Virus record (IMG/VR): IMGVR_UViG_3300025131_000032
Span: 1-63,828 of that record
DNA from: a virus
Lineage: Duplodnaviria > Caudoviricetes
Length of the DNA stretch: 63,828 nt
Strand: one strand, 5' to 3'
Within the stretch, counting starts at the first letter, position 1. Each line of letters opens with the position of its first letter. Below, one piece after another: positions 6,668 through 34,160 of the stretch. The notes under the pieces are model-generated. The model was not told the DNA's origin, did no database searches, and worked only from the letters and a program-made list of their open reading frames with translations. The position numbers and the translations under genes are program-made.

Positions 6668-6964
6668 ATGCAGGCGAAAGTGCTGAAGAAGATGCCATCG
6701 CGGAAGATGAAGTACCCGTGGGCTGAGTGGACAGACGGACAGGCGCGGCAGGTTACGCTCGGGAAGAACGAGGTGTCTCCCGTGGCCTTCCGTAACTCGT
6801 TGTATAGCCGTGCCAGGAGGATCAACAGGGGTGTCACTGTGTCCATGGTTGGGCAGGTGGTGTCGTTCCAGTTTGAGGTGGATGAGGTTCTCGACCTTGC
6901 CGCTGAGATCATGGATGGGATAGATGCGGCTCGCTATCCAACGAGCACGGAGGCGCCAGAATGA
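6668..6964 (+). CDS. small putative DNA-binding protein (KYPW motif)
   Basis: RKMKYPWAEWTDG; paralogous to 5722-6003. Confidence 0.6.
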   Translation: MQAKVLKKMPSRKMKYPWAEWTDGQARQVTLGKNEVSPVAFRNSLYSRARRINRGVTVSMVGQVVSFQFEVDEVLDLAAEIMDGIDAARYPTSTEAPE

Positions 6965-7845
6965 CCATTCTCACCCAGATCCCCTTTGCGGACTACGTTG
7001 GTATGCCGCAGATCAACCCGTCGCTGCTTACCCATGCCTTCAAGAGCTGGAAACAGTTCCGGCATGTGCAGCTCAATGGGTTCCAGCCTAAGACGCCGAC
7101 CCGCGTTGGAACCCAACTACACTCCATGGTAGAGCTCCTGCCGCTAGAGAAGTTCCAAGACGAGTATGTGGTCATGCCTGACTACAAGACCTCGCCTGAC
7201 AATGTCACCGGCACAGGCAAGCCATCCACATCCCGCACCGGCTGGGTGAAGGACCAGGAAGCCGCGTTCAAGGATGCCAACGGTGGGGCAGAGGTTCTGG
7301 AGCTGTCTGAGCACAAGCGAGTGCGGCGGATGCTCAAATCGGTTCAGGAATGTCCCGATGCCCTAGACCTGATCGAGGGCTCTCAGAAAGAGATGAGCAT
7401 GACCGCAGAGATGTGCGGGATCCAGTGTAAGGGCCGCATGGATGGGATCAAGCCGGTTTCGAGTATCCTGTGGGATCTCAAGAGTACGGCCTCGATCCAG
7501 CCTCAAGCGTTTGGTCGCACGGCCACCAACCTTAACTACGTCTTCAAGATGGCGTTTTACACTCGGCTGATCGTTGCCAACGGTGGCGCGGTGGATCGCG
7601 TGTTCTTCATCGCGGTTCAGGATGCTCGGCCCCACAAGGACGGGGTGACCTGGAACGAGGCGCCGGATTGCACGGTTATCGAAGTTCCGATGATCGCCAT
7701 CGAGAACACGTTTTCAACCATCGATCGGCTGTTGTACGAACTCAAGGCGTGCCAGGACGAGAATGCTTGGCCTGGGGTAGCGTCTCACGAGCTGTACATT
7801 CCGAACTGGGCGATGCCAGAAGAGGATCTAGAACTCTGTGACTAA
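6961..7845 (+). CDS. RecE/exonuclease VIII-like PD-(D/E)XK nuclease (DUF3799-like)
   Basis: INPSLL, GTQLHSMVE, CKGRMDG, WDLKST, Y..KMAFY. Confidence 0.8.
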   Translation: MTILTQIPFADYVGMPQINPSLLTHAFKSWKQFRHVQLNGFQPKTPTRVGTQLHSMVELLPLEKFQDEYVVMPDYKTSPDNVTGTGKPSTSRTGWVKDQEAAFKDANGGAEVLELSEHKRVRRMLKSVQECPDALDLIEGSQKEMSMTAEMCGIQCKGRMDGIKPVSSILWDLKSTASIQPQAFGRTATNLNYVFKMAFYTRLIVANGGAVDRVFFIAVQDARPHKDGVTWNEAPDCTVIEVPMIAIENTFSTIDRLLYELKACQDENAWPGVASHELYIPNWAMPEEDLELCD

Positions 7846-10664: not shown

Positions 10665-10873
10665 GTGATCGCCTCTCAGCAGCCATGGCCCTTCTCTTCG
10701 TTGCAGTGGCTGGGTTGATGGCGTTAATTCGGATGTTCTTCCCAGAGCTGAGTTGGTTCTGGGTATTGGTGCCGCTGGGTGCTCCGATTTTGATATTTGT
10801 GGGGACATTGACTGTGCTGGCGGTGTTGACGCTGGTGGTGTTCCTGACTGGCATATTCGACCGGAGGCTGTGA
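10661..10873 (+). CDS. small membrane protein
   Basis: two hydrophobic stretches, SWFWVLVPL; ATGA coupling. Confidence 0.65.
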   Translation: MSDRLSAAMALLFVAVAGLMALIRMFFPELSWFWVLVPLGAPILIFVGTLTVLAVLTLVVFLTGIFDRRL

Positions 10874-10995
10874 TGAATTACCTGGAGAAGTACCTCAGCT
10901 TCCTAAATAAACCGCCTTGGAAGTGGGATATTTTCCGTCCTATCGGCCTAGACGCGATCCAGGTTGACACATCCGAGATTAGCAAGGAGACAATA

Positions 10996-11286: not shown

Positions 11287-11335
11287 GGGAGCACGCCGGG
11301 ACGATCTTGAGTGGCATATTCGACAGGAGGCTACG

Positions 11336-11530
11336 ATGAATTACCCCAATCGCATTCCCGGCTCGAAGTATTTCCGCGAGTATTGTGCGTGTTGTGGTGA
11401 GCCCATGCGAGTGGTTGGTGAGGATGTTGGGACTGAGCCATGGTGTGTTTCATGCCGCCATGGACCGCTGGCTCAGCATACTGGCCTGACGCCTCGGCAG
11501 AAGCATGGACTAAAGAATACTGGAGGTTGA
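11336..11530 (+). CDS. small zinc-finger protein
   Basis: AGGAGG RBS; CACCG...CVSC. Confidence 0.55.
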   Translation: MNYPNRIPGSKYFREYCACCGEPMRVVGEDVGTEPWCVSCRHGPLAQHTGLTPRQKHGLKNTGG

Positions 11531-12427: not shown

Positions 12428-12460
12428 ATGAGTGGTAATTCCCTTCCTAGGAGACGAGTA

Positions 12461-12853
12461 ATGGCCAACCACTTCACTAACATCCTGATCTGCATCCAAG
12501 ACCCCGAGCAGGAGATTCCAGTCGATCTCCCCAGTGACCTATGCGAGTGGGTTGACCCGATGCCGCCAGTGCTTCGCAATTCGCCGCGCTGGTACGACTG
12601 GGCGGTGGAACACTGGGGCACTAAGTGGGGGACATACAGCCACGAGGTGACTCAGCTAGGCGGTGACTGTTGCCCCTTTGTCATCTCTTTCATCACAGCC
12701 TGGGGGCCGCCACATCCCGAGATGATGCGGCAGATTGTTGCCAAGCTGAAGGCTGAGTTTGCTTTCGATGAGATCTGCCATGTGGGCGTGGATCCGTATG
12801 ACGGCGACATTGAGGTTGTTGGTGAAGTTGCCGCTAAAACAGGAGACGAGTAA
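12461..12853 (+). CDS. YubB/DUF1281-like ferredoxin-fold protein
   Basis: WYDWAVEHWGTKW and FITAWGPP; AGGAG RBS. Confidence 0.7.
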   Translation: MANHFTNILICIQDPEQEIPVDLPSDLCEWVDPMPPVLRNSPRWYDWAVEHWGTKWGTYSHEVTQLGGDCCPFVISFITAWGPPHPEMMRQIVAKLKAEFAFDEICHVGVDPYDGDIEVVGEVAAKTGDE

Positions 12854-12856
12854 TGG
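12815..12856 (+). repeat. 42-bp direct repeat, left of the methyltransferase
   Basis: GTTGTTGGTGAAGTTGCCGCTAAAACAGGAGACGAGTAATGG is identical to 13944-13985. Confidence 0.95.
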
Positions 12857-13899
12857 CAAGGATGAACTATCTGGACCTTCTACAGAGAGAGCTTCCTCGA
12901 CCGTTAAAGCGTAGGACACGCAAATACAAGGCACTCGACCTTTTTGCCGGCTGCGGAGGACTTGCTTTAGGTTTTGAGGCCGCTGGGTTTCACACGGTTG
13001 GCTACGAAATGTTGGCCGACGCATGTGACACTTATTCTGCAAATCTGGCGGGCGAATGCCACCAGTTGACCCTGGAGCCAGGGCAAGATCTTACTGACGA
13101 AGCACATGTTGTAATTGGTGGACCGCCTTGCCAGCCGTTTAGTGTTGGTGGATTGCAAAATGGTAAGCGGGACAAGCGGGATGGTTTCCCGGCGTTTCTC
13201 TCGGCAGTTCAGCGATACAATCCCGATTTGGCGATGTTTGAAAACGTCCGTGGGATGCTGTATCGGAACAAGGGGTATCTTGAGTATATTGCCGATGAAC
13301 TGCGTTCTCTTAGCTACATCGTTGAGTGGAAGCTCTTAAAAGCGGTCGAGTTCGGTGTGCCGCAACGGAGAGAGCGTCTTTTCGTGATCGCTCATCGGGG
13401 GCCGTGGAGCTTTCCACAGCCGTCAGCACGCAATAGCGATTACACAGCCGGTGATGCTCTTGATGATTTGGCATTCAAGGTCCACGAAAACACCAAGTTC
13501 TTAACGAAAAGTATGGACGAGTATGTGGCACGATACGAGAAAAAGTCGCTTTGCGTTCGCCCTCGTGACCTTCACTTAGATCAGCCAAGCAGAACCGTTA
13601 CATGTCGCAATCTAAATGGCGCCACTAGTGACATGTTGCGAGTGCGCCTCCCCGATGGACGCCGGAAACGTCTTGTTGTTCGTGAGGGTGCAAGATTACA
13701 GAGCTTCCCTGATTGGTTTCAGTTCAGTGGTGCCGAAGGCAGCCAGTTCAATCAAGTAGGCAATGCAGTGCCACCCCTCTTGGCAAAGGCCGTAGCAAAG
13801 TCTGTGCTGCAATATCTCGAATGTGACAGGCGACTTTCCAAGAATGAAATCGCCAAGCATAACGCAGCGGGTCAGCTATGCCTGGATTCTGGGGAATGA
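12853..13899 (+). CDS. DNA (cytosine-5) methyltransferase, type II R-M-like orphan
   Basis: motifs I DLFAGCGG, IV GPPCQPFS, VI ENVRG, VIII QRRERL, IX REGARLQSFPD, X GNAVPP. Confidence 0.95.
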   Translation: MARMNYLDLLQRELPRPLKRRTRKYKALDLFAGCGGLALGFEAAGFHTVGYEMLADACDTYSANLAGECHQLTLEPGQDLTDEAHVVIGGPPCQPFSVGGLQNGKRDKRDGFPAFLSAVQRYNPDLAMFENVRGMLYRNKGYLEYIADELRSLSYIVEWKLLKAVEFGVPQRRERLFVIAHRGPWSFPQPSARNSDYTAGDALDDLAFKVHENTKFLTKSMDEYVARYEKKSLCVRPRDLHLDQPSRTVTCRNLNGATSDMLRVRLPDGRRKRLVVREGARLQSFPDWFQFSGAEGSQFNQVGNAVPPLLAKAVAKSVLQYLECDRRLSKNEIAKHNAAGQLCLDSGE

Positions 13900-13905: not shown

Positions 13906-13959
13906 ATGCCAGATATAGCCACTAGAATTGAAGAAGCCCAGCAGTTGTTGGTGAAGTTG
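13906..13959 (+). pseudogene. possible 5' stub of the cognate restriction endonuclease gene
   Basis: MPDIATRIEEAQQLLVKL starts 6 nt after the MTase stop and runs into the direct repeat; resembles BsuBI/PstI-family N-termini (recalled). Confidence 0.35.
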
Positions 13960-13985
13960 CCGCTAAAACAGGAGACGAGTAATGG
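13944..13985 (+). repeat. 42-bp direct repeat, right of the methyltransferase
   Basis: identical to 12815-12856. Confidence 0.95.
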
Positions 13986-17382: not shown

Positions 17383-17560
17383 TAATGGGGGGGACTATCT
17401 CGGCGGTTCTAAGACGACTGCGGACGCGCAGATCGCCACTGCCTTTTGTGTCGTGCAAACGGGAAACCGTGCAACCCCCCACCAAAATAATTACTCTGGC
17501 AATCACTTCGATCATCGTGTTAAATGACACTGAGGCCACCCCCATACCAGGAGGCCAGCA

Positions 17561-19282: not shown

Positions 19283-19330
19283 GCTGCCTGTAAAATCCGG
19301 TGTCAACCCCAACTTTTAGGAGAGTGCAAG

Positions 19331-20008: not shown

Positions 20009-20012
20009 GGCT

Positions 20013-21014: not shown

Positions 21015-21018
21015 GTCG

Positions 21019-21348: not shown

Positions 21349-21359
21349 GAAGGGTAACC

Positions 21360-21596
21360 ATGGCGAGGCAACGCGGGCTGCGGGCGAGCATGGACAGAGT
21401 CGAAGGGAATGCCCACTACACGATGAATTCCCTCCGATCCACCGCACTTGAGCTGATCGAGGAGCTTGAGGACGGCATTACGATCCGCATTACAAAGGTC
21501 GGTGAGGGCAGTGTTATGGACTTCCTGATGGGCAGGCTCGAGGAATGTCCCATCGGGTTGCGTATCGATCTCAGAGAGGACGATGAAGGCAACTAG
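21360..21596 (+). CDS. hypothetical protein
   Basis: RBS; in operon. Confidence 0.55.
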   Translation: MARQRGLRASMDRVEGNAHYTMNSLRSTALELIEELEDGITIRITKVGEGSVMDFLMGRLEECPIGLRIDLREDDEGN

Positions 21597-21625
21597 GCCG
21601 CATGGCCGCATTAAGGGTGAGAACA

Positions 21626-21811
21626 ATGGTTGATGTAGTGAAGAAATCGCTTTCTGGGAAGAAGACCTATTTCGTCGCTGTCGGCATGGCAATGTACGCC
21701 ATCGGTGGCGCAATTACGGGTGCTCACGACTACGGCCACATGGTCGAGGTGTTGATCCAGGCCGCTGGCTTGATCGCACTCCGCCTTGGTGTCGAGAAGG
21801 CGGGAGCTTAA
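21626..21811 (+). CDS. small holin-like protein
   Basis: LSGKKTY followed by two TM segments and LRLGV. Confidence 0.55.
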   Translation: MVDVVKKSLSGKKTYFVAVGMAMYAIGGAITGAHDYGHMVEVLIQAAGLIALRLGVEKAGA

Positions 21812-21885
21812 TTTAGCGCGGCAGGTAGGGCGTGCAGCTGGGACAATAACTCCCGCGCCGCCCGCCCTGTTGCTAAAGGTAAGAC

Positions 21886-22995: not shown

Positions 22996-23006
22996 GGACA
23001 CCAAAT

Positions 23007-24944
23007 GTGGCTGACGACAGACTTCTCATCCGCAGCGGCGATGCCCTACTTATCCGGGCAGGGGACGCTCTGCTTATTCGGGCTGCCGTTGCCGGTGTGT
23101 CGATCCCGGTATTCCAGAACCACTATCGTCAACAGGCCGATCAAATGAACTATCTCAAGCAATCAACTGCCTCCCAGGCGATTACGCTTGGCCCGTTCGT
23201 TGATTCGACTGACGGCGACACAACAGAGACTGGCCTGACAATTGCGAACACTGACATTCTGCTGTCGAAATCTGGTGGGGCGTCGGCGGCGAAGAACTCA
23301 GGCGGCGCAACTCACGATTCGGGCGGAACCTACACAGCAACCCTTGACGCCACCGACACCAACACGGTTGGCACTCTCGATGTGACGGTTCATGTCTCCG
23401 GCGCCCTGTACGTCAAGCGGTCGTTCCAAGTGCTCGAAGAAGCGATCTACGACGCCCTGATAGGAGCCTCCGCAACCGGATTCAATTCCTCCGGCCAGAT
23501 TGCCTTGCTCACGGCTACACAAGCGAGCATCGACGCAATCGAGACTGATACCTCGACAACGCTTCAGGGCGAACTCGATGCGATACAGGCTGCTGTCATC
23601 ACCAACGCAGCAGGCACAGACATTGCAGCAGACATTATTGCAGTCAAGGCTGAGACCGCATCAATCCTGACAGACACCGCAGAGATTGGCGCTGCTGGGG
23701 CTGGCCTTTCTGACCTTGGCGGGATGAGCACGGGGATGAAGGCGGAAGTCAACGCTGAGTGCGACACTGCAATCACCGATGCTGCTCTTGCTACGGCAGC
23801 CAGCCTGGCGACAGTGGACACAGTGGTCGATGCGGTAAAAGCAGTAACCGATGTGCTTCCTGACAGTGGTGCTCTTACCTCGTTGGCTACCGCATCTGCT
23901 CTATCAATCGTAGACGGGATTGTAGATACGATCCTCCTCGACACAGCGGAATTGCAGACTAACCAAGGAAACTGGGCGACCGCAACAGGATTCTCAACTC
24001 ACACCGCTGCAAATGTTCGTACTGAGATGGACTCGAACAGCACGCAGTTGGCAGCCATCGTTGCGGACACTCAGGACATCCAGACCCAAGTTGGCACTGC
24101 AGGCGCCGGACTCACAGACCTTGGTGGTTTCAGTACGGCCGCCAAGGCTGAGATCGAATCGGAAGCAAATGACGCCCTAGTCGTGCTCCAATTGGATCAC
24201 CTGCTCCATGTGGCCGACGCTTCGACCACTACAAACAACTCCATCATCGCCAAGATAGCTAGTAAGTCAGCAACGGCGGCCTTCTCGTCATTCGTGAATA
24301 CGACAGACAGCCTTGAGGCGTTGCGAGATAACCAAGGTGGCGGAGGTGGTGGTGATGCAACTGAGGCCAAGCAAGACCTCATTATCGCTGCTGTCATCAC
24401 CAACGCTGCAGGCACAGACATTGCAGCAGACATTATTGCAGTCAAGGCTGAGACTGCCAGTATCCTCGTTGACACTGGCACCACCTTGCCAGCCTCGATC
24501 GCTACTATCGATTCAAATGTCGATGCTATTTTGGTTGATACGGGCACTACCATCCCGGCCACCTTAGCGACAATCGACGGGATCGTGGACTCCATTCTCG
24601 TTGACACGGGGGCCACCCTGCCCGCTACCCTAGCCACCATCGACTCCAACGTGGACGCAATCCTGGTTGATACAGCCACGACGATCCCCGCCAGCATCTC
24701 AGCCCTAAACGACATCTCAGCCGCGGATGTGAACGCCCAGGTGGTTGATGTGGTTTCGACAGACCTCCGCGTTGACGGCTATTCCTTGACGGATGCCACC
24801 CAGATCATTGCCGCGGCATGTTGCGGGCGAGTCTCTGGAGCCGGCACAGCCACCGAGGTCTTCAAAGGGCTTGATGAGTCAACTACTCGTATCACAGCCT
24901 CCGTGGACTCGAGCGGAAACCGAACCGACCTCGTCTATGTGTAG
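23007..24944 (+). CDS. repeat-rich fibre-like virion protein
   Basis: N-terminal GPFVDSTDG.T.ETGLTI...SK domain; 22-aa TIDSNVDAILVDTGTT.PA repeats. Confidence 0.6.
   Translation: MADDRLLIRSGDALLIRAGDALLIRAAVAGVSIPVFQNHYRQQADQMNYLKQSTASQAITLGPFVDSTDGDTTETGLTIANTDILLSKSGGASAAKNSGGATHDSGGTYTATLDATDTNTVGTLDVTVHVSGALYVKRSFQVLEEAIYDALIGASATGFNSSGQIALLTATQASIDAIETDTSTTLQGELDAIQAAVITNAAGTDIAADIIAVKAETASILTDTAEIGAAGAGLSDLGGMSTGMKAEVNAECDTAITDAALATAASLATVDTVVDAVKAVTDVLPDSGALTSLATASALSIVDGIVDTILLDTAELQTNQGNWATATGFSTHTAANVRTEMDSNSTQLAAIVADTQDIQTQVGTAGAGLTDLGGFSTAAKAEIESEANDALVVLQLDHLLHVADASTTTNNSIIAKIASKSATAAFSSFVNTTDSLEALRDNQGGGGGGDATEAKQDLIIAAVITNAAGTDIAADIIAVKAETASILVDTGTTLPASIATIDSNVDAILVDTGTTIPATLATIDGIVDSILVDTGATLPATLATIDSNVDAILVDTATTIPASISALNDISAADVNAQVVDVVSTDLRVDGYSLTDATQIIAAACCGRVSGAGTATEVFKGLDESTTRITASVDSSGNRTDLVYV
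23589..24454 (+). repeat. 68-bp internal duplication (23589-23656 and 24387-24454)
   Basis: one mismatch; encodes AAVITNAAGTDIAADIIAVKAET. Confidence 0.9.
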
Positions 24945-24951
24945 GTGAATC

Positions 24952-25245
24952 ATGGCTAAACGTACCTTCGCCTCTCGCATGTTCATGGCGAACCACTACG
25001 CCTCCGGTATGTGGGCAGGCGCAGCATCGACAGCAACCACCCTCTGCTACAGCCCTACCCACTCGGTGGGCTCAGTCGAGCAGTACACCCCCGAGAGCCT
25101 CACAGACGGCTCCTACACGCCGGCAGCCACTGTGCTGTCCTCTTACGTCCCCACCAGCTTGGAGCTCTCCTCGTACACTCCAGGGGCTGTAGCGGCGAAT
25201 ACCTGCTATCGCCCAGGTAAGCTCGGGGACTCCTGCGGGCCGTAG
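24952..25245 (+). CDS. small protein with Y-x-P repeats
   Basis: YSP, YTP, YTP, YVP, YTP, YRP at about 10-aa spacing. Confidence 0.55.
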   Translation: MAKRTFASRMFMANHYASGMWAGAASTATTLCYSPTHSVGSVEQYTPESLTDGSYTPAATVLSSYVPTSLELSSYTPGAVAANTCYRPGKLGDSCGP

Positions 25246-25357
25246 GCGCATAAAAACGCGGCGGCAAGTAACAGGAGCCGGGGAGGAGGTAGACCCCGTG
25301 GAGACGTTGCCCCTGTCACAAACGATCCGCATCACCAGACCGTGCCGCCGCTGATGT

Positions 25358-25450
25358 TCACTGCTCCAACCACCTAGATACCCAGGCCGCCGCTAAGAAT
25401 GCGGCTACATACAGGGCTAATTCCCAAAACCTTGACCAGAAACGGCTCAT
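25358..25450 (-). CDS. 30-aa hydrophobic peptide
   Basis: GAAGGGG RBS; MSRFWSRFWELALYVAAFLAAAWVSRWLEQ. Confidence 0.45.
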   Translation of the reverse strand: MSRFWSRFWELALYVAAFLAAAWVSRWLEQ

Positions 25451-25482
25451 CGCTGACCCCTTCCCAGTTGCCCCTGTCTAGC

Positions 25483-26613
25483 TTACTTCCGGTCCTGGGG
25501 CAAGTCCAGCTCGCAAATAGACTGCATGAACGCTATGACGAACTGGGCCGCCACCTGCGGGACGATAGCATTTCCCAGTCCACGCAACTTAGCCACTCTG
25601 GCGGGTATCCCTGAAGCCAGCGGGAATGTTCCGGGTTCAACTGGCCGATACTTTCCGTCTGAGCAGTAGAGGTAGTCTGCTTCTGCCCAGAACCCGCTTT
25701 CGCAGCGTCGCACGGCAGGGATCCGCCTGACTGATTCGGCCCCCCCTTGCTCCCATCGGTCGCCCTGGGAGTATTCCGACCGTTGGTCTTCGCAGCGTCT
25801 GACTCCGCCAGTTGCGCCATCGATTGCAGGTCGATCCCGCCGGACCGAGGACGCTTGGCCTTGCTCTCCCGTGTCTCCTCGCCCCCCGTCTTGGCATTGG
25901 GAGTCGCCCACCCCGCTAGTGCCACTGTCTTCCGGCTGGAGTCCGTGTTGCCTGCTTCGTTGTAGATCTTCTCCCCCGCCGCGTTGAACTTCGCTGGTGT
26001 CCCGGCCTGGGGAGTAGGCCACCCCGCCATCGTCGCCACATAGCTCAGAGGCTTCCCCCTGCTGTGCGCATCCCGCTTCGCGTTGAACTCCGGCGTTGCT
26101 GATTCGCTCCGATAGTCCCTCGCCGCTGCGGTAGGCCACCCAGAACAACCGTTGGCGGATGTGCGGCGCCCCGATGCCCGCAGCGCACAAATCGGCTGCC
26201 CCGAAGGCATATCCCAGTGCTTCCAGGTCAGCTTGTACTCCGGCGAGCCACGCCCGTCCAAGTTTGCTCGCAACCTGCTCTCCAAAGACAACTGGAGGGC
26301 GGCACTCGTCAATGAGGCGCCTGAACTCGGGCCAGAGGTGTCGCTCATCTGACTCCCCTTTCCGCTTACCGGCGGCACTGAAGGGCTGGCATGGACAACT
26401 TCCAGTCCAAACGGGAACATCGTCTGGCCAGCCTGCGAGTTGCAAGGCGTAAGGCCATCCCCCGATTCCTGCGAAGAAATGGCATTGGGTGTATTCTTTG
26501 AGTTCATCTGCTGTTACCTCACTAATACTGCGGTTGTCGATCCGGTCTAATTGTAACGGTAGCTGCTCCAACCACGCGCAAGCCTTAGCGTCGTTGTCGT
26601 TGGCGTAGATCAT
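25483..26613 (-). CDS. DNA (cytosine-5) methyltransferase, large (alpha-type) polypeptide lacking motif IX
   Basis: FFAGIGG, SCPCQPFS, EQV, HIRQRLFWVA, LRGLGNAIVP; start ATGA-coupled to the upstream gene. Confidence 0.88.
   Translation of the reverse strand: MIYANDNDAKACAWLEQLPLQLDRIDNRSISEVTADELKEYTQCHFFAGIGGWPYALQLAGWPDDVPVWTGSCPCQPFSAAGKRKGESDERHLWPEFRRLIDECRPPVVFGEQVASKLGRAWLAGVQADLEALGYAFGAADLCAAGIGAPHIRQRLFWVAYRSGEGLSERISNAGVQREAGCAQQGEASELCGDDGGVAYSPGRDTSEVQRGGGEDLQRSRQHGLQPEDSGTSGVGDSQCQDGGRGDTGEQGQASSVRRDRPAIDGATGGVRRCEDQRSEYSQGDRWEQGGAESVRRIPAVRRCESGFWAEADYLYCSDGKYRPVEPGTFPLASGIPARVAKLRGLGNAIVPQVAAQFVIAFMQSICELDLPQDRK
25533..26348 (-). CDS. overlapping alternative-frame (beta-type) MTase polypeptide carrying TRD-like repeats and motif IX
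   Basis: AAGGGGAG RBS; WPTAAARD/WPTPQA/WATPNA repeats; LNPEHSRWLQGYPPEW. Confidence 0.75.
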   Translation of the reverse strand: MSDTSGPSSGASLTSAALQLSLESRLRANLDGRGSPEYKLTWKHWDMPSGQPICALRASGRRTSANGCSGWPTAAARDYRSESATPEFNAKRDAHSRGKPLSYVATMAGWPTPQAGTPAKFNAAGEKIYNEAGNTDSSRKTVALAGWATPNAKTGGEETRESKAKRPRSGGIDLQSMAQLAESDAAKTNGRNTPRATDGSKGGPNQSGGSLPCDAAKAGSGQKQTTSTAQTESIGQLNPEHSRWLQGYPPEWLSCVDWEMLSSRRWRPSSS

Positions 26614-26840
26614 CCTCCTTGTACCCTCCTCACCTTCTGGTATGCACCCCCACCCATCGCGATCCACCCTGCCCGAGGCGTCACTGACCGAGGCGTGAGG
26701 TGCGTGTCGTCCTCATAAAAAACACGGGCGCCTGCCCGGAAAGCACGTTGCTCTTCGGTCCAGGTCGCCCGTATTGCGTCACGACGTTTGATAATCTCGT
26801 CGTGGTCTAGGTCGTCTTCGATGTCATCATGCCAAGCCAT
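26610..26840 (-). CDS. hypothetical protein
   Basis: coupled start and stop; EII.R...IRATW.EE...R. Confidence 0.6.
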   Translation of the reverse strand: MAWHDDIEDDLDHDEIIKRRDAIRATWTEEQRAFRAGARVFYEDDTHLTPRSVTPRAGWIAMGGGAYQKVRRVQGG

Positions 26841-27100
26841 TACCGCTCCCAGTTCTTCTCCATCGCATGCTTGATGGTCAGCTTAGCCTCATCATACGCC
26901 CCAGCATCGATGTGCTGAGTGGCGATTTCGAGAAGGCCGCCGATCAGCTCCTGCTGGCGCCGATCCTCTGGTGGGTCTGGCGAGTATTGCGCCGATGGCA
27001 ACCGGACATTGCAGCATGGTTTCACGAACCTGCCCCCTCCGTAAGAGACTGCACACACTTTCCCGCACTGCGGGCATGTGCCAAGGCTGACATCACCCAT
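26840..27100 (-). CDS. small zinc-finger protein
   Basis: CPQCG...PCC; start lies in the GGAGGTGGAGTGATG junction. Confidence 0.6.
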   Translation of the reverse strand: MGDVSLGTCPQCGKVCAVSYGGGRFVKPCCNVRLPSAQYSPDPPEDRRQQELIGGLLEIATQHIDAGAYDEAKLTIKHAMEKNWER

Positions 27101-27453
27101 CACTCCACCTCCAATTCAGGATAGAAGTACCCCTGGAACTCGCACGACTCTGACGCAGGCAAGTCCTCGTACACCGCTTTCGGGTCGAAGCTGAACTTGA
27201 GCGGCACCGCAACCGGATCGTCCCCGCAACCCATCTCGACCCCGTCGCCGCGATCACCCCCGCCATTCCGCTCGGCCAACCATTCGTAGGCGTCAACCTC
27301 GCCAAACATCCCATACCCAGCGTACCACGATTCCTCAACCGGAGGCTCGCCATCGGGCTGAAGCAGGAAGACCGCCCGCTGCTCAAACCTGCTCGAATGC
27401 GAATTCGCGATTGACTCACCAGTGTCGGCCGTTTTCCATGAGAAGAAACCCAT
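27100..27453 (-). CDS. conserved phage hypothetical protein
   Basis: MGFFSWKTADT.ESI.N...E..Y.GYG.FG..D.Y. Confidence 0.7.
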   Translation of the reverse strand: MGFFSWKTADTGESIANSHSSRFEQRAVFLLQPDGEPPVEESWYAGYGMFGEVDAYEWLAERNGGGDRGDGVEMGCGDDPVAVPLKFSFDPKAVYEDLPASESCEFQGYFYPELEVE

Positions 27454-27641
27454 CACTCCACCTCCAATTCATCATCGTAATCATCTGTGTAGTCGTTGAT
27501 GCCCTCGATTAACTCGTCCTGGGCACTGTCAAGCCGCTCCACCGCGACATAGTAGGGGATCTCACCCTCCTCGACCGCTTCGATCAGCATTGTGACGATG
27601 CGATCCGCCACCGCTTGCAGTTCTTCACGTTCATCCGCCAT
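27453..27641 (-). CDS. 62-aa highly acidic protein
   Basis: 22 D/E versus 3 R and no K; junction-motif RBS. Confidence 0.65.
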   Translation of the reverse strand: MADEREELQAVADRIVTMLIEAVEEGEIPYYVAVERLDSAQDELIEGINDYTDDYDDELEVE

Positions 27642-28476
27642 CACTCCACCTCCAGAAAAAAGGGATATCACTTGCGTAGATTTGTTTGAGAGCCAGCCAC
27701 TCTCGTTTACTCGCGGCAAGGAAGTTGTCTTCTTCGGCATCCACTCGCCTGAGCATGTTAGCGAACTTCCTGGCTCGCAGATCGAAGTCCCAATCAATGC
27801 CGACTGCCCCGGCATACATCGACCCTGGCAGGGACTCGATCAATGCCGCTAGGCAGTCATCGTTGATCTTCTGCTGGGACATGCCAGCGGGTGGTTCCCA
27901 ATCGCCTGTATCCCAATTGCCGTGCTCGTCGTATTGCCCAAGCGTCTCAGCGATCTCGTGCGGCTCGTCCCACTCTTGAGCAAACCAGCCACTCGCCCGC
28001 CCCTTGCTGATGACTACGTTTCCAAATGTTCCCTCCTTCGCGGCAGAAGTTTGAACTTCACACACTGGGCCAGTGCCCTCAAATGCTACTCGCATCTTGT
28101 CGATGTCTTCCTGCTCCACTCGGTCGAGCCAGTGCGTTTCGTATGCTGCCCAGCATGACCATTTTAGATCAACGCTGATTTTGACTTGCCGTGGTGGGGT
28201 GGGGTTGTCCATCCACAATTGCAGTGTGGGGTTTGCCTTGCTCCCACACTTGCTACACCTGATGCCCATGCCTCCCGCGATGCGGATAACGTGAGCGGTG
28301 AACGTCTCGACAGGCTCGCCTTTCATGTATGCGCGGTCGCTGGGTCTGTCTTGCATGTGTTCCTCGTAGGAATCATGCCCGTATAGCCTTGCGATAATGG
28401 GATTTGCCTCATCGTTGAGGGCGACGACGTGCCACCCAGTTAAGCTATTGTTAATTCTCGCCTTCGCAATACCCAT
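27631..28476 (-). CDS. hypothetical protein
   Basis: long ORF with the junction-motif RBS. Confidence 0.65.
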   Translation of the reverse strand: MGIAKARINNSLTGWHVVALNDEANPIIARLYGHDSYEEHMQDRPSDRAYMKGEPVETFTAHVIRIAGGMGIRCSKCGSKANPTLQLWMDNPTPPRQVKISVDLKWSCWAAYETHWLDRVEQEDIDKMRVAFEGTGPVCEVQTSAAKEGTFGNVVISKGRASGWFAQEWDEPHEIAETLGQYDEHGNWDTGDWEPPAGMSQQKINDDCLAALIESLPGSMYAGAVGIDWDFDLRARKFANMLRRVDAEEDNFLAASKREWLALKQIYASDIPFFWRWSDGG

Positions 28477-28652
28477 CACTCCACCTCCAGCTTAATGCCA
28501 AATTGCCGTTTAAACGTCCTCACAAGCCCCCTAGCGTCCTCCACCGCCTCAGCCTTGGTCTGATAAGGCCCCATCCACCCAGTGCCCTTGAATGGCCGTA
28601 GGATGACCCAGCGACCGCCGCGATGCCCACGCCGCGTTTGTACTATCCGCAT
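28476..28652 (-). CDS. 58-aa basic protein (below the ORF-track cutoff)
   Basis: MRIVQTRRG...MGPYQTKAEA...LEVE. Confidence 0.6.
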   Translation of the reverse strand: MRIVQTRRGHRGGRWVILRPFKGTGWMGPYQTKAEAVEDARGLVRTFKRQFGIKLEVE

Positions 28653-28900
28653 GATTCATCCCCCAACTGCACATCCCAACCCAGCGTGGCGCACTCTGCA
28701 GGGATCTTCGCCAACTGAATCAGTTCGGCTTCCACCGCATCGAGGTAGTCAGGCAGGAGCAGGCAATTGCACAACACCGCATAGCTACCCCGCTGCAACT
28801 CCCATTCAGCAATTGCCCGTGGCTCATCTTTCGCCGCGAACACATCGACGAATATCTGCCGCTCGTCTGGATCGCACGACTCGATTACGAAGTTTTGCAT
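28643..28900 (-). CDS. hypothetical protein
   Basis: junction-motif RBS. Confidence 0.6.
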   Translation of the reverse strand: MQNFVIESCDPDERQIFVDVFAAKDEPRAIAEWELQRGSYAVLCNCLLLPDYLDAVEAELIQLAKIPAECATLGWDVQLGDESCG

Positions 28901-29139
28901 CACTCCACCTCCTCTAAAAGGTTGAATTGCCGGTTCAGCTTGCTCGTGGCCAAGGCCAGCGCCTGCACATCACTCAGCCACACGTCGTGACATTCAGCGA
29001 TGCAATCTGCCACCTTGCTCATTGCCTCGATAGCACCCGCAACCGCTTCCCGTTGCTCAGGCGTCAATTCTGCCACGCCTGCCCGCCGCTTCTCTCGCTT
29101 GGCATTCTCCGGCGCTTTCCAGTCTTCGTTAATCGTCAT
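28900..29139 (-). CDS. hypothetical protein
   Basis: GGAGGTG RBS; ends in EEVE. Confidence 0.6.
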   Translation of the reverse strand: MTINEDWKAPENAKREKRRAGVAELTPEQREAVAGAIEAMSKVADCIAECHDVWLSDVQALALATSKLNRQFNLLEEVE

Positions 29140-29207
29140 CTCACATCACCTCCAGGTTGAAACAGGAACACAAGCCCAGCGCCCACCTCCTGGGCGCCGG
29201 TAGAGTG

Positions 29208-29642
29208 TCACTGTGCCATCTTCGCGAACAAGTCGAGCGCGGCCTCGAACTCCATCTCATTGAGCGGAACCACGCCTTCACGCCGAGTCTTGAACCGCTC
29301 CAGCGCCTCCGCAGTCGGCTTGGTCCCAATCTCGAAGATCCCACCCTCCTTGGCGAAGAGAATCTTCCGCCGCAGCATCCGCTTCAGATCCCGCGCCATC
29401 AGCCAGCGATTAACCAAGTCGCAGCACTCCCCCTCCAGGTTGTGCCACTCGCCCTTGGTGCGACAGTAGTCGTCAGCCAGCTTCCAGGCCGCCTGATCAC
29501 CCGCGAACAGGTCAGGGCCGCCCCTGCCATCGTTCTCGACTGTGCCGATCCGCTTGCCATCGACCCAGACTGAGGCAGAGTAGCAGTGCGTTTCCTGACT
29601 GGCGAAATCGGCATGCTTGACGTTTTTGAGTTGAATTTTCAT
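29208..29642 (-). CDS. conserved phage hypothetical protein
   Basis: MKIQLKNVK...SQETHCY.ASV.VDGK....ENDG.GG. Confidence 0.7.
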   Translation of the reverse strand: MKIQLKNVKHADFASQETHCYSASVWVDGKRIGTVENDGRGGPDLFAGDQAAWKLADDYCRTKGEWHNLEGECCDLVNRWLMARDLKRMLRRKILFAKEGGIFEIGTKPTAEALERFKTRREGVVPLNEMEFEAALDLFAKMAQ

Positions 29643-29644
29643 AA

Positions 29645-30080
29645 CAGACGCTCCTTGATTAGTTGATTAGTTCCGCTTCCAGCGCCTCGATCACAGTTCG
29701 ATTCTATCCAAGGACATTAAGCTGGACCTCGTTTGGAATATGGAATTTATCATGTGACCAATGCACAACGCCGCCAGTGCTGGACTCAATTCGCACGATG
29801 CAATGATCCAACACGCCACTGCCGCCCATTGAGTTGGATCGGTAGATGACTAGCGGAATCTTGATCCTGCCAGTGGATCGTCCAATGTAACACCGCTCTA
29901 CATCGCCCCATGCTGCACCAGTTTCCTGTTCGCCGTAGAACAACTTGAGCCGCATACCTCGCTTGCTCGTGCGTGATTTCTCCAACACCCTGATAACATT
30001 CAAAGGCGTGTCGTTGTGGTATGTGGTGCCGTCTTGAATTTTACTCACAGCAGACGCTCCTTGATTAGTTCCGCTTCCAG
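29645..30080. repeat. 30-bp direct repeat (29645-29682, with an 8-bp internal duplication, and 30051-30080) flanking one gene
   Basis: CAGACGCTCCTTGATTAGTT[GATTAGTT]CCGCTTCCAG. Confidence 0.9.
29704..30048 (-). CDS. conserved phage hypothetical protein
   Basis: GTTYH..TP..V..VLE...LFYG..TG..W...IGRSTG..KIPL...GG..VLDHCIVRI. Confidence 0.7.
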   Translation of the reverse strand: MSKIQDGTTYHNDTPLNVIRVLEKSRTSKRGMRLKLFYGEQETGAAWGDVERCYIGRSTGRIKIPLVIYRSNSMGGSGVLDHCIVRIESSTGGVVHWSHDKFHIPNEVQLNVLG

Positions 30081-30365
30081 TTTGCGAGCCAGCGCCGCCG
30101 ACTCGTACACGCCGCACTCCTCACACACCGCTTCCATCACCTCCACCACCGTCTTCCGCCGAGGTGGCGCTTCGATGCCGCTCTCATCCACCAACCGCGC
30201 ACAGGTCTTGTGGACCTTCCAGACCGCGCCCGCCGACGACCTGGACCCCCGCGCCGTCTCAATCGCTACCTTGACGGTCTTTGGGTTGACTTTTGTCACC
30301 CGCCCGATGGTTTGCTCACCACTCGGGCGCCCGAAAATCACACGATCACCAATAGAAAAATCCAT
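30045..30365 (-). CDS. SH3/KOW-like small protein
   Basis: FSIGDRVIFG...GRVTKVNPKTVKV...WKV. Confidence 0.6.
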   Translation of the reverse strand: MDFSIGDRVIFGRPSGEQTIGRVTKVNPKTVKVAIETARGSRSSAGAVWKVHKTCARLVDESGIEAPPRRKTVVEVMEAVCEECGVYESAALARKLEAELIKERLL

Positions 30366-30481
30366 AACTCACCTCCAATTAGGATAGTAACCAAGCGAAA
30401 ATGCTGTCGCAAACGATCCAGCCCAGCCCAAAGCAGACCCAGAGAGCCAACTGACAGCCGGTATAGTCCACATTCGCCTTG

Positions 30482-30616
30482 TCATCTTGCACGCTCCACC
30501 TCCACCTTGCTGGAATCCCACTTGAAACGCAACACGCAATAATTGCCTGCTGCAACCGCCGACGCTGCTTCGACCGTGCGCCTGAACCGGCCACGGTAAT
30601 AGACCTTGTATCTCAC
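30482..30616 (-). CDS. 44-aa protein (MRYKVYYRG...)
   Basis: AAGGAGGT RBS, GTG start; its first 7 codons recur at 32087-32107. Confidence 0.5.
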   Translation of the reverse strand: MRYKVYYRGRFRRTVEAASAVAAGNYCVLRFKWDSSKVEVERAR

Positions 30617-30774
30617 GAGTCACCTCCTTGGGCAATGCGGAGCAAGGCGCCGCCCCAGCTCTTGGGCGCCCCCTCAGCTTTCTGCTCCTGGTTTTTATGG
30701 CAGTCGCCACACATGCCGTTAAGCAGTAGGGTCTTCGCCCCACAGCACTCGCATTCTCCTAGCGTGGTCGTCAT
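30613..30774 (-). CDS. 53-aa zinc-finger protein
   Basis: GGAG RBS; CECCG...MCGDC. Confidence 0.5.
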   Translation of the reverse strand: MTTTLGECECCGAKTLLLNGMCGDCHKNQEQKAEGAPKSWGGALLRIAQGGDS

Positions 30775-30851
30775 CTAATCAGTCTCCAAAAAAGGTAGGG
30801 AATAAGCCGCACAAGTCCGCGCCCACCTCGGGCGCGGTAGTCTGTGGCCTA

Positions 30852-31274
30852 TCAATACTCACTCGGCAGAAAGATCAGCCGCACTTTCTCGTCACCAACC
30901 ATCGTGGGCGCCACATAGAACTTCGGCCAACCCTGCTCAAAGTCCCAATCAGTGAACCCCACAAACTGCCGATCCTGCACGTCGATCATCTCGCCGTCGT
31001 TGTCGATGTCCGCGCCTGCTTCGACCACCGCAGTGGCATCCGGCGCCGGTTGCCCGTCGAAGTCCACCGGCTTATCGCTGGGCTGGATCGGGCGAAGGCG
31101 CCAGATCTGCAAGGACTGGAACCGCATATCCCCAGCGCGAACGCCCCTTGAACCCTGCCGAGTTGCCACGATATCGATCAGCCAGTGGCAATTGTGCTCC
31201 TCCCGATACGCAGCCACGCCGCTAGTAAAGCAAACGCCCCGGCATAAACTGTGCCTAGTGATAGTGTCAGACAT
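30852..31274 (-). CDS. DUF6876-like protein
   Basis: FTSGV...E...CHWLIDI, Q.WRL, Q...FTDW, terminal LPSEY. Confidence 0.7.
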   Translation of the reverse strand: MSDTITRHSLCRGVCFTSGVAAYREEHNCHWLIDIVATRQGSRGVRAGDMRFQSLQIWRLRPIQPSDKPVDFDGQPAPDATAVVEAGADIDNDGEMIDVQDRQFVGFTDWDFEQGWPKFYVAPTMVGDEKVRLIFLPSEY

Positions 31275-31351
31275 GCTCAAACCCTCCAAAGATAGAGTAG
31301 AAAACCAAGCTAACGCCGTGACCGGAGCCACGGCGCACGCCTGAGCCGCTA

Positions 31352-32068
31352 CTATGCGTAGCAGGGCATGAAGCAGAACGTCACGCCTTGCGCTTGCCCA
31401 TAGCAAGGTTTGTCTCCATTCGTCCAGATCTTCACATGCGCATCGTCGTGCAACGTAGCAAGCCAGTCTCGCAACAAGTCAGGGTTCATGGCTACCTTAG
31501 CGCCTTCCACTTGTAGGTCGTAGGATACGCGACCACGCGGCTCGTATCGTGGCCGAATTGTCCCGTCTGGCTCGATATGGTAGACGGTTCCTTCGGTTGC
31601 GGCGTCGATCCAGCGGACAAGATCTTCCGCGCGTCCCGATATCGTCCCAGTACCCTCAGGCGCATCAGGCAGGTAGTCATCACAAGCTGGAAAACGGCCC
31701 TGGACACGCTCGATTGTGATCTCGATTGCGGTTGGCTCTTTCTTAATCAGTTTCGAGAATCGGAAAACGGCGGAAGTTGCTGTGATCTCGTATTCAACGG
31801 CGCCAGACTTGGCAGTCAACGCGCCCGCCAACTTCTTCAGCCCAGCCCGATCTAAAATAACGTCCGCCAGAAACGGATCGTCATCTGGCACCAGCGAGCA
31901 CTTGGTACGCGATGCTCGCCGCCCATCGGTACAAGTGACCTGCCCATTGGCAAAATAGGCGCCCCCAAGGGCAAACCGGCTTGATTTAGTGTCTGACGCA
32001 AACAGCACTGCGCGGAGGCAGCGCTTGAGTTCGATTGCGTCGATTGTGGCAGCAGTAGCGATTGACAT
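31352..32068 (-). CDS. DNA polymerase III beta (sliding clamp)-like protein, two-domain
   Basis: AVLFASD..SRFAL.G, TDGRR, GRFP, MNP.LL.D. Confidence 0.7.
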   Translation of the reverse strand: MSIATAATIDAIELKRCLRAVLFASDTKSSRFALGGAYFANGQVTCTDGRRASRTKCSLVPDDDPFLADVILDRAGLKKLAGALTAKSGAVEYEITATSAVFRFSKLIKKEPTAIEITIERVQGRFPACDDYLPDAPEGTGTISGRAEDLVRWIDAATEGTVYHIEPDGTIRPRYEPRGRVSYDLQVEGAKVAMNPDLLRDWLATLHDDAHVKIWTNGDKPCYGQAQGVTFCFMPCYA

Positions 32069-32122
32069 AACTAGCTCCAAAAAAGGGTAGTAGACCTTGT
32101 AACGCATGACTCACCTCTCCAA

Positions 32123-32347
32123 TCAGCGATAGGAGCCTCCGCTTTGGTCGAAGATATGCTCGATAGTGTAAATCTCAATTTCCGTTAACTCGCAGCCGTC
32201 AAGCCGCGTAATCCAGCGGTCAGAATAGCCGCCTACCTTCTGGCAGGCGCGACGGTCGCGACTCAAACATGCCACGGCAGTCTCAAGGGATCGGTGCCGA
32301 TGGCCGCAGTCAGAGCGGACAGAACCCTTCGTTGTATACTCGCCCAT
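32123..32347 (-). CDS. conserved phage hypothetical protein
   Basis: YTT.GSVR..CGHRHRS..TA..C...D...C...GGYSDR. Confidence 0.65.
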   Translation of the reverse strand: MGEYTTKGSVRSDCGHRHRSLETAVACLSRDRRACQKVGGYSDRWITRLDGCELTEIEIYTIEHIFDQSGGSYR

Positions 32348-32387
32348 GCTCAAACCCTCCGAAAATAGTGAAGAAATGCCCCAACCG

Positions 32388-32594
32388 CTATACGTCTCGC
32401 TGCTGGTACTCGATCACCGCGCCGTCTTCATCGACAACCCGCACCGCTTGCTGGAGGCCGTCGTTACGCTGCTGGTACTCGCCGCGCAGCCTGTCTCGCG
32501 CCTCCAGCGCCTCCAGCGCCGAGCCAAACTCGGTCGAATCGTCATCTCGCGAGAATAGGTAAGTGGACAGGCACCGCGTCTGCAAATAAAACAT
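32388..32594 (-). CDS. hypothetical protein
   Basis: GGAG RBS. Confidence 0.55.
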   Translation of the reverse strand: MFYLQTRCLSTYLFSRDDDSTEFGSALEALEARDRLRGEYQQRNDGLQQAVRVVDEDGAVIEYQQRDV

Positions 32595-32655
32595 AACTAC
32601 TCCAATGTGATTAGTGATTTGCCCCACAATTCAACCCCATCCCGCTGCTATAGTT

Positions 32656-32885
32656 CCTACTCCGCCCTACTCCGACCTGCTCCGACCTGCCGACCTGCTC
32701 CGACCTGCTCCGATCCTGCCGAGCCGCCGATCCTGCCGACCCTGCTCCGATCCTGCTCCGATCCTGCTCCGATCCTGCCGACCCTGCTCCGATCCTGCTC
32801 CGATCCGCCGACCCTGCCGATCCGCCGACCCTGCCGAGCCGCCGACCCGCCGACCCGCCGACCCTGCCGACCCTGCCGACCTACT
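32656..32885. repeat. degenerate tandem array of 23 CCGA-core units (8-11 bp)
   Basis: units CCGATCCTGCT, CCGACCCTG, CCGACCTGCT, CCGACCCG and variants; intergenic. Confidence 0.92.
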
Positions 32886-33645
32886 TATGAAACGGATAGA
32901 CTACGTCAACCAAAACAGCCGCGCAAGCCGTGCAATTGCCACATTTGGCTCGCGGGTTCGCTCGGCTCGGCTTATGCTTGGACGCAAACGTATTCGCAAT
33001 AGCAGGGCAGATAACCGTTTTGCGGCCGGTTGCTTTACGACGACGACGCGCCAACTCCCGCGCGGCCGCTATCCGCTCGCGCAGTTTAGTCCCTGGACTC
33101 CCAGCAACGACACTAACGGCGCCACTAGCCCGGACAAACCGCCGAGCACTAGCGCAGGACTCCCGCACCGTTACCAGATCGCCAACCAAGGCGCGGTAGA
33201 ATCTAGCCTTCGCGAACCCCTCGACTGGAAAATGGGTAGGGATTCCCAAATCGGTTGTCCACCGAAACAGCCCCCGCAAAGCAGTCAGGAACAGCCTATT
33301 CTGCCGCGCCACGCTCGGCATTGGAACCGATCCAAAACTACTGATGCGCAGCCACGGAATCGAGTCCTTGCTTTGCATCTCAACCAGCGCCCGATTAACT
33401 AGCGTCGCCGGATTAGTGTGGCTGTGCCGAGAAAGCTTGGCTTGCAATTGGCGCCTATCGATTTGCGCCTGCGTCGATGTTGCGTAACATTGCCGCGAGG
33501 CGCCCGGAATTGTCGAGCGTTTGTGATGCCCGCAAGCCGACCGATCACAATTGACGCCGCTACTACTGCCGAAATTGAGAGAAACGGCGCCTTCAACCGC
33601 TTTGCCAAATCCTCCGAGCACCGGCCTACGCTTTCGAGTTTTCAT
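32881..33645 (-). CDS. GP88-like Cys-rich protein
   Basis: C...C...CYA, WLRISSFGS, ICPA...CGNCTAC...YPFH. Confidence 0.6.
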   Translation of the reverse strand: MKTRKRRPVLGGFGKAVEGAVSLNFGSSSGVNCDRSACGHHKRSTIPGASRQCYATSTQAQIDRRQLQAKLSRHSHTNPATLVNRALVEMQSKDSIPWLRISSFGSVPMPSVARQNRLFLTALRGLFRWTTDLGIPTHFPVEGFAKARFYRALVGDLVTVRESCASARRFVRASGAVSVVAGSPGTKLRERIAAARELARRRRKATGRKTVICPAIANTFASKHKPSRANPRAKCGNCTACAAVLVDVVYPFHK

Positions 33646-33679
33646 ACTGCTCTCCATTCTGAGGGTAAGAACGAAACCC

Positions 33680-33709
33680 CAATCGCCCCGCAATGTGCGG
33701 GGCGATTGC
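33680..33709. other. perfect intergenic hairpin
   Basis: CAATCGCCCCGCA-short loop-TGCGGGGCGATTG; no U-tract. Confidence 0.6.
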
Positions 33710-33724
33710 AGCCAAGCACCTACC

Positions 33725-33925
33725 CTACTTAGGTGTGGTGATCTTAGTCTTGGCGCAAAATCGTAGCATCACGTCGTCCCCCATTTCTTGCCGATTGCAG
33801 GGTTTCCCGTCGTAGGGGTGAAATAGGTCCGCAATGATCCAATCTTGACCGCTTGCCCAACTAGCGCGGGCTGCTTTAACCGTCTTGAAATCACGTCCAT
33901 AGGCCGGAAGTAGTGTCGTTGACAT
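33725..33925 (-). CDS. conserved phage hypothetical protein
   Basis: L.PAYGRDFK..K.A...W..G.DW. Confidence 0.65.
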   Translation of the reverse strand: MSTTLLPAYGRDFKTVKAARASWASGQDWIIADLFHPYDGKPCNRQEMGDDVMLRFCAKTKITTPK

Positions 33926-33967
33926 AACGTAGCTCCAACAAAAGGGGAAGGAAAACTCAGAGTTTGG

Positions 33968-34160
33968 TTATTCGGTATCACAGTAGTGCTCTAAATCAAT
34001 GGCGCCGTCGCGTATTAGTGTCACCGACTCACCCGCAGCGCGACCGATGCACAGTAGGCTTAGCTCACGATACTCCGCAAACATCTTGTGGGCGTAGACT
34101 GGCGAACAGCCGGAGAAGACCGTGCCGATGTTGCCGACGATTACCTCATAGTTACTCATT
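33968..34160 (-). CDS. conserved phage hypothetical protein
   Basis: AAGGA RBS; YEVIVGNIGTV...GRAAGESVTL..DG. Confidence 0.65.

Follow-up and report, generated by a model that had tools for sequence, protein, structure and literature searches.

We analysed a viral DNA record from IMG/VR (IMGVR_UViG_3300025131_000032; Caudoviricetes) at its full length of 63,828 bp, referred to below as the window, in which short direct repeats lie across the ribosome site and start codon of neighbouring genes. Ordinary phage recombination where genes meet probably left these repeats as footprints and uses them as substrates; they would not be parts of a dedicated element. Several bracketed genes carry the marks of insertion, and some are missing from wild relatives in which one repeat copy is left. 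The window clearly illustrates a mode of gene shuffling that other phages had already revealed in outline; it does not amount to a novel integron-like machine.

Junction repeats and the genes they bracket

The original prediction had described five repeat families, A to E, each placed on a ribosome site and start codon, and a sixth around a DNA methyltransferase gene at 12.8-14.0 kb. Families A to E all occur at the predicted positions, and the sixth was found as an exact repeat of 42 nt (Table 1). Every gene from 25.5 to 34.2 kb lies on the minus strand, and the repeats of that arm are therefore read on the minus (coding) strand. Two additional cases were found, at 10842/11305 and at 14220/14565, the latter with GAGGAG..CGATGAGT present at both positions.

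The repeats were compared with a null model in which every alignment column of 103 start windows was shuffled among the genes, with ribosome-site and start-codon composition kept. In-register exact runs of at least 14 nt were observed in 15 pairs of start windows, whereas 300 column shuffles gave 0.06 such pairs on average and never more than 2. A local alignment score of at least 15 was reached by 22 of 5355 start-region pairs and by none in five shuffled sets (best shuffled score, 14.5). The top seven pairs were the methyltransferase pair, the pair 10873/11336, and families A, B, C, D, and E. The members of each of the 22 pairs share one strand and are separated by no more than 3.3 kb. For family A, six matches were observed at up to two mismatches, a number reached in 0 of 100 shuffles (shuffle mean, 0.18). 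Runs of at least 14 nt occurred in 29 pairs in the 63.8-kb window and in 21 pairs in 268 kb of 30 control loci, a biased baseline because these loci were chosen via the family A 18-mer or gene homology. The repeat identity far exceeds the expectation from ribosome-site selection; the enrichment over shuffled ribosome-site regions that the original prediction had put up for checking was found.

The family A unit, GGAGGTGGAGTGATG, consists of a 7-nt ribosome site (GGAGGTG), a 5-nt spacer, and ATG. In four of its five exact copies the upstream gene has its stop codon inside the copy (TGATG; protein tail ..EVE*). At the remaining one, copy 3, the upstream 281-aa gene uses the same letters in a different frame, indicating conservation at the nucleotide level. 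The copies of family B (29639-29682 vs 30045-30080) are 92-100% alike, and the remnant in copy 2 carries an 8-nt tandem duplication. Both copies of family C contain CATGCTCAAACCCTCC exactly and have similar flanks, those of family D match with 1-nt indels, and MRYKVYY codons open both copies of family E (30595 and 32086). The family E copy at 32084..32121 is what remains of a start region, in the same frame as the clamp-like gene.

Three cases with long repeats share one layout. The upstream copy consists of the true 3' end of the preceding gene, the ribosome site, and the start, and the bracketed gene begins at the ATG or GTG of this copy. Past the stop of the bracketed gene lies the downstream copy, in all three cases a leftover of the same 3' end that is not translated, and after it the next resident gene starts. 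The methyltransferase frame begins exactly at the junction ATG, with a family match over 18-333 of 348 aa. The methyltransferase gene, gene 29704-30048, and gene 10873-11286 (GC content at third codon positions, GC3, of 0.54) are all among the six lowest-GC3 genes (genome mean 0.67, standard deviation 0.057). The downstream remnants and the low GC3 favour insertion with target duplication over ancestral presence, and their combination reads as an insertion footprint. As predicted, the genes between repeat copies are unrelated: no BLASTP pair with E <0.05 was found among 28 proteins, and bracketed or neighbouring genes belong to different families (methyltransferase, phrog_17487, DUF6876, clamp-like).

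Table 1. Junction repeats, bracketed genes, and recombination genes of the window.
Feature	Positions	Strand	Description
Family A copy 1	27098..27112	-	ribosome site and stop/start overlap, before gene 26840-27100
Family A copy 2	27451..27465	-	before gene 27100-27453; 24 nt identical with copy 1
Family A copy 3	27639..27653	-	before gene 27453-27641; 281-aa upstream gene in other frame
Family A copy 4	28474..28488	-	before gene 27631-28476
Family A copy 5	28898..28912	-	before gene 28643-28900; resembles copy 4 (71% over 48 nt)
Family B copy 1	30034..30080	-	3' end of gene 30045-30365, ribosome site, GTG start, first codons of inserted gene
Family B copy 2	29631..29682	-	non-coding remnant of upstream gene's end, ribosome site, ATG of gene 29208-29642
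Family C copy	31272..31303	-	before DUF6876 gene 30852-31274
Family C copy	32345..32376	-	before gene 32123-32347
Family D copy	32062..32090	-	before clamp-like gene 31352-32068
Family D copy	33919..33947	-	before gene 33725-33925
Family E copy	30593..30630	-	ribosome site, GTG, MRYKVYY codons of 44-aa ORF 30482-30616
Family E copy	32084..32121	-	ribosome site, ATG, MRYKVYY, then directly the family D junction
41-nt junction copy 1	10842..10882	+	before low-GC3 gene 10873-11286
41-nt junction copy 2	11305..11345	+	88% identity; intergenic remnant before ORF 11336-11530
17-nt third copy of methyltransferase junction core, AGGAGACGAGTAATGG	12445..12464	+	third copy, at 12461
42-nt junction copy 1	12815..12856	+	last 13 codons of gene 12461-12853, ribosome site, ATGG (methyltransferase start)
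42-nt junction copy 2	13944..13985	+	non-coding remnant, ribosome site, ATGG of gene 13982-14230
345-nt in-frame segment	14226..14570	+	phrog_4019-like part of ORF 14220-14867, between the two GAGGAG..CGATGAGT copies
DNA methyltransferase gene	12853..13899	+	phrog_116; GC3 0.51, lowest of the genome
Inserted gene, 114 aa	29704..30048	-	phrog_17487; GC3 0.58
RecE/exonuclease VIII-like PD-(D/E)XK nuclease	6961..7845	+	candidate for short-homology recombination
Serine recombinase	42311..43402		gene present in window

Filled and empty sites in relatives

One metagenome scan returned three loci, L002 (99.9% identical, matching 17634-38458), L003 (96%), and L004 (92-95%). In addition, Logan contigs of four marine runs (X3, X4, X6, and X16) were compared over 12401-32400, a range that excludes 32401-34000 and the 10.8-11.3-kb pair and within which cover of 31744-32400 was thin in relatives. 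This comparison gave 12 joints.

The methyltransferase gene was missing, with one repeat copy left, in X4, X6, and X16, where a joint from 12814 to 13944 skips 1129 nt at 42 shared letters. Depth over the gene was zero in X4 and X6 with the flanks covered, and X3, near-identical to the window, covers the gene. Gene 29704-30048 was missing in L004 and in contigs of X4 and X6. At the empty site of L004 the stop of the upstream gene overlaps the ATG of gene 29208-29642 at a single junction copy; in X4 and X6, the joint from 29644 to 30051 skips 406 nt at 20 shared letters. Another joint in X4 and X6, from 14225 to 14592, has nine 'between' letters that equal window 14571-14579, and ATGAGT stands at both 14220 and 14565. 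These relatives therefore lack the 345 nt between the copies of ribosome site plus ATGAGT, and 12 nt more.

Other changes were observed at the junctions as well. The joint from 26971 to 27093 marks a replacement ending at the family A copy at 27098, the next ~120 nt being replaced in relatives, and L003 reads GGAGGTGATGTAATG at this junction. Before gene 30045-30365, L004 carries a family A-like variant where the window has a different form. A joint that 'goes back 790' was found in X4 and X6 at the family D junction (32069/32086 to 31297), linking this junction and the clamp-like gene's first ~9 codons to the spacer that follows the gene. The X6 contig has a depth of 10.5 vs 11.9-14.9 per bin in the region; this closeness to the neighbouring bins suits a genomic arrangement better than a rare circle, and the joint could represent a different gene order or a tandem copy in relatives.

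The centre of the second methyltransferase gene (25572-26019 within 25483-26613, phrog_363) was replaced or indel-rich in L003, X4, X6, and X16. It looks like a swapped variable region, perhaps for target recognition.

Probable gene capture at start sites and alternative explanations

The most likely course of events is capture by short-homology or illegitimate recombination at start sites, with later loss or exchange via general recombination between the duplicates. A foreign gene would enter via two crossovers, one of them within the ribosome-site/start-codon stretch; as this is the one short sequence common to all genes, the newcomer would inherit the resident start. The second crossover would re-enter the phage a few dozen bases upstream, within the end of the preceding gene, and the outcome would be a duplicated unit of gene end, ribosome site, and start. 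Since only such duplication products keep both operon genes translated, selection would retain them. Duplicates of 8-42 nt would subsequently recombine by homology, and the gene would be lost precisely with one copy left, the outcome observed in relatives; alternatively, it would move between co-infecting relatives. Through such loss or transfer the bracketed genes would be polymorphic in the wild population. Junctions present in several copies, family A (five) and AGGAGACGAGTAATGG (three), may have arisen from repeated events at one junction, their cores persisting as good stop/ribosome-site/start signals.

The enzymes acting on the duplicates could be the RecE-like exonuclease and a putative annealing protein, or those of the host. 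The RecE-like nuclease is a candidate for short-homology recombination, and an SSB is also encoded. Two Atlas look-ups for an annealing partner named no family. The 149-aa protein encoded at 7838-8287, overlapping the end of the nuclease gene, is one of a family of proteins of ~130-160 aa with 157 representatives at E<=0.001. It is predicted to form a beta-barrel with helices (pLDDT 88) and resembles OB-fold DNA binders only weakly (best PDB match, E 0.013).

Several observations weigh against gene capture of this kind. Seven of the 12 joints (14633, 21302, 22333, 25572, 25853, 25920, and 26349) are unlinked to junction repeats, and most of these are replacements within genes. No gain or loss was seen at families A, C, and E in L003, L004, and the four runs, although this absence, with cover of 31744-32400 thin, tells neither for nor against. 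X4 and X6 carry the same variants and are therefore not independent populations. The order D-C-E-D-C-E, from 33925 down to 30616, is interleaved, which excludes simple nested insertions as its source. Members of the RecT, ERF, and Rad52 families were not found among the window proteins, and the direction of change, gain or loss, is read from composition and remnants only. Two parts of the original prediction were upheld for some junctions and not for others. Breakpoints inside the repeats with one copy left were found for the methyltransferase gene, gene 29704-30048, and segment 14226-14570, but not for the seven joints above. Whole genes come and go at initiation regions, the first copy supplying ribosome site and start, but no such change was seen at families A, C, and E.

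Family A contributes a further point on this side. In IMG/VR, 27 stretches contain its 18-mer, one copy each and all of them unrelated to the present phage, and four of these carry extra adjacent copies of the 14-mer core. The core, GAGGTGGAGTGATG, was found at two to three adjacent junctions in the unrelated low-GC viral contigs L012, L024, L009 (one phage group), and L016. Such recurrence in unrelated low-GC phages points to selection on the signal itself. It is possible, though we doubt it, that the multi-copy junctions (family A and AGGAGACGAGTAATGG) are translation signals kept by selection, with no role in gene movement. They would then represent an optimal unit coupling stop, ribosome site, and start, or serve a translational regulator as its operator, in the manner of start-associated sequences (SAS). 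The spacing to ATG is fixed, stop and start overlap, the nucleotides are kept even with the upstream gene in another frame, and four of the five family A copies are unchanged in L003, all of which suits such signals, as does the presence of the same 14-mer in unrelated phages. The SAS provide a precedent (PMC3203893). Selection for translation leaves unexplained, however, the 30-42-nt repeats with non-coding remnants and the empty sites. Moreover, the copies are clustered and not spread along the arm, the homology runs past the signal in two pairs (24-48 nt), and one family A copy is a mosaic boundary. Close relatives are colinear over the family A region. In our reading, family A is an old junction that has been used again and again, and selection for coupled translation maintains its core.

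The 281-aa gene between family A copies (27631-28476) has homologues of ~31-36% identity on long contigs (171-634 kb) without synteny to the present phage. Its profile matched one 171-kb viral contig, L032 (10001-10540; 31% identity, no synteny), and nothing was found in species genomes. This gene behaves as a travelling accessory gene.

The original prediction had proposed a candidate undescribed integron-like capture system, possibly driven by the serine recombinase or by the RecE-like nuclease and a partner. Such a recombinase would recognise initiation junctions and insert and excise circular cassettes, which we consider very unlikely. The same-orientation arrays of unrelated, promoterless genes with repeated junctions would fit, as would the single copy at empty sites, the presence of a serine recombinase gene, and the 'goes back' joint around the clamp-like gene, as from a circle or a tandem duplication; the depth of the X6 contig, however, suits a genomic arrangement. 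Furthermore, no core beyond ribosome site and ATG is shared among the families, and thus there is no common site for a site-specific recombinase. A search with PF00589 for a tyrosine recombinase gave no match in the record, whereas the control search matched 14 of 14 genomes. The 3' ends of three cassettes, folded on both strands, gave no attC-like hairpins (z +2.26, +2.39, -0.73, -1.19, +1.01, and +0.77). Promoter-like sites numbered two in 25.0-35.5 kb vs 4.6 expected, none of them at a junction. The downstream copies contain target-specific coding remnants, which suit homology or duplication and not a portable site. No evidence ties the serine recombinase to the repeats, and the RecE-like nuclease is present with its annealing partner not found. 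Neither the proposed system nor its drivers were therefore supported.

Tandem duplication and divergence, by which the neighbours would be old paralogues with only their start regions still alike, is extremely improbable and was rejected. The copies are adjacent and on the same strand, and some pairs have their first 1-7 codons in common, but the proteins lack BLASTP kinship and differ in family, 42/42 identity beside unrelated coding sequence does not fit divergence, and the bracketed genes are compositional outliers in GC3. Likewise rejected, with next to no chance of being correct, was an assembly artefact of repeats or skips in mis-joined contigs: at 42 nt the exact repeat is longer than the 31-letter index words of Logan and could confuse a graph, but depth over the methyltransferase gene is zero in X4 and X6 between covered flanks, the skip of 29704-30048 recurs in the independent Joint Genome Institute (JGI) contig L004, the methyltransferase frame opens at the junction ATG and matches its family, and L002 agrees with the window.

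Genome context and known systems

The record has direct terminal repeats, positions 1-22 being identical to 63807-63828. Its start (1-460) carries 120- and 147-nt tandem repeats with copies at the end (63704-63828), in or beside the open reading frame (ORF) 219-1844. The gene content includes weak terminase and portal matches, a helicase, SSB, two HNH nucleases, the serine recombinase, and two DNA methyltransferases. A megablast search of the phage collection returned no match, and no close relative emerged from IMG/VR when the 281-aa gene, the clamp-like gene, the terminase, and the methyltransferase served as queries. Rfam and tRNA scans found nothing. ORF 1845-5654 (1269 aa) has a strong coding signal and no match in Pfam or PHROG, and ORFs 43680-45188, 58051-59382, and 59392-60999 have no PHROG match. 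The 645-aa ORF 23007-24944 contains, within 23589-24693, three tandem units of 66 nt and an 89-nt repeat whose copies are 89% identical and spaced 798 nt apart, which is fibre-like modular repetition.

In the repeat-bearing arm, the gene caller gave no confident gene over 32595-33724 (~1.1 kb), and ORF 32881-33693 has no match in Pfam or PHROG. Upstream of gene 32388-32594 lie ~240 nt of degenerate 8-11-nt direct repeats of the CCGACCCTG and CCGATCCTGCT types (32640-32880), which could represent an array of iterons or of a regulatory kind. Found on the minus strand were two intergenic hairpins that are homologous and rich in GC, 29176-29200 after gene 29208-29642 and 30819-30835 after the DUF6876 gene (within 29140-29215 and 30775-30860). 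Both have the ribosome-site-like GGAGGTGGG in loop and stem and match one gapped pattern exactly, with 0 expected. A third strong hairpin is located at 33680-33708.

The acquisition of variable phage genes has been called 'mysterious' in one paper (PMC4378225), and how single accessory genes such as methyltransferases and anti-defence genes are acquired without wrecking phage operons is still poorly understood. The present genome is a clean natural case in which filled and empty forms coexist in the sea and join at a translation start, the duplicate at the join keeping both genes translated. Should the pattern prove general, such repeats at junctions could flag recently acquired phage genes and predict genes that a phage population sheds or trades quickly. 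A wider proposal, which we regard as unlikely, is that initiation regions serve as general gene-capture sites in many uncultured phages: ribosome-site/ATG microhomology would guide an exonuclease/annealing pathway that fuses foreign genes to resident starts, and a target duplication of 20-50 nt would make each a reversible cassette. The logic would be integron-like but need neither a site-specific recombinase nor a dedicated site.

Integron arrays (IntI, attI, attC) resemble the present arrangement in their promoterless, same-orientation, unrelated genes that are present or absent as units. In contrast to integrons, an IntI-type recombinase, attC-like folded sites, and a common site were not found here. 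The closest known systems are boundary or linker recombination, as at gene 68 of mycobacteriophage Island3, and the shuffling of promoter-early stem-loop (PeSL) cassettes in T4-type phages. The PeSL cassettes are reportedly also the subject of Comeau et al. 2014. According to Arbiol et al. (2010, PMC2839356), these repeated regulatory elements flank non-essential genes of unknown function, and relatives differ by insertion, deletion, or replacement at the elements, a single element standing at the empty site. The proposal made there was homologous recombination that needs no dedicated recombinase, the arrangement was likened to integrons, and excised mini-circles were demonstrated (PMC2839356). 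The window is similar in that indels between close relatives are bounded by a repeat, with one copy at the empty site. PeSLs, however, are ~100-bp units of promoter and terminator with one genome-wide consensus, each cassette being its own transcription unit (PMC2839356), whereas here the repeats are 15-48-nt translation signals within polycistronic operons, most families are confined to a single pair, the joints lack promoter-like sites, and only the two homologous hairpins, at 29179-29197 and 30819-30835, were found.

The SAS of Cluster K mycobacteriophages are a conserved asymmetric 13-bp motif with a ribosome-site core, located a few bases upstream of the ATG of unrelated non-structural genes, in many copies over half a genome and conserved across subclusters (PMC3203893). 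Their conservation exceeds rRNA pairing and a role in translation was proposed, with no link to indels (PMC3203893). Family A resembles them in its ribosome-site core, which in SAS lies 3-7 bp upstream of ATG, but differs in sequence and in having five copies clustered within 1.8 kb. Laboratory work offers another parallel. Two papers describe T4 amplifications and deletions by recombination at 6-10-bp microhomologies (PMC9391042) and mosaics driven by relaxed homologous recombination of phage recombinases (PMC3945230). As in Campbell-type insertion-duplication or microhomology recombination, for which 6-50 bp of homology suffice in infected cells according to these papers, a direct duplication flanks the insert and one copy is left after loss. 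Unlike the arbitrary short homologies of those events, the homologies here lie in a systematic way at the starts of translation, and this is probably a filter imposed by selection.

The pattern had been put forward as possibly new, but it is already published for single cases and in other forms (PMC3029335, PMC2839356). In Island3, compared with Brujita, gene 68 (an inserted gene of unknown function) lies within a ~50-60-bp direct repeat of the 3' end of the upstream gene; a close relative has one recombinant copy without the gene, and general recombination enzymes are credited by the authors (PMC3029335). The flanking repeat of an upstream 3' end and the relative with a single copy are likewise found here. 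Compared with that case, as described there, the present genome has several independent junction families, its repeats extend through ribosome site, start codon, and first codons, an untranslated remnant is present in three cases, some junctions occur in 3-5 copies, and the case rests on variants of an uncultured marine phage from wild metagenomes.

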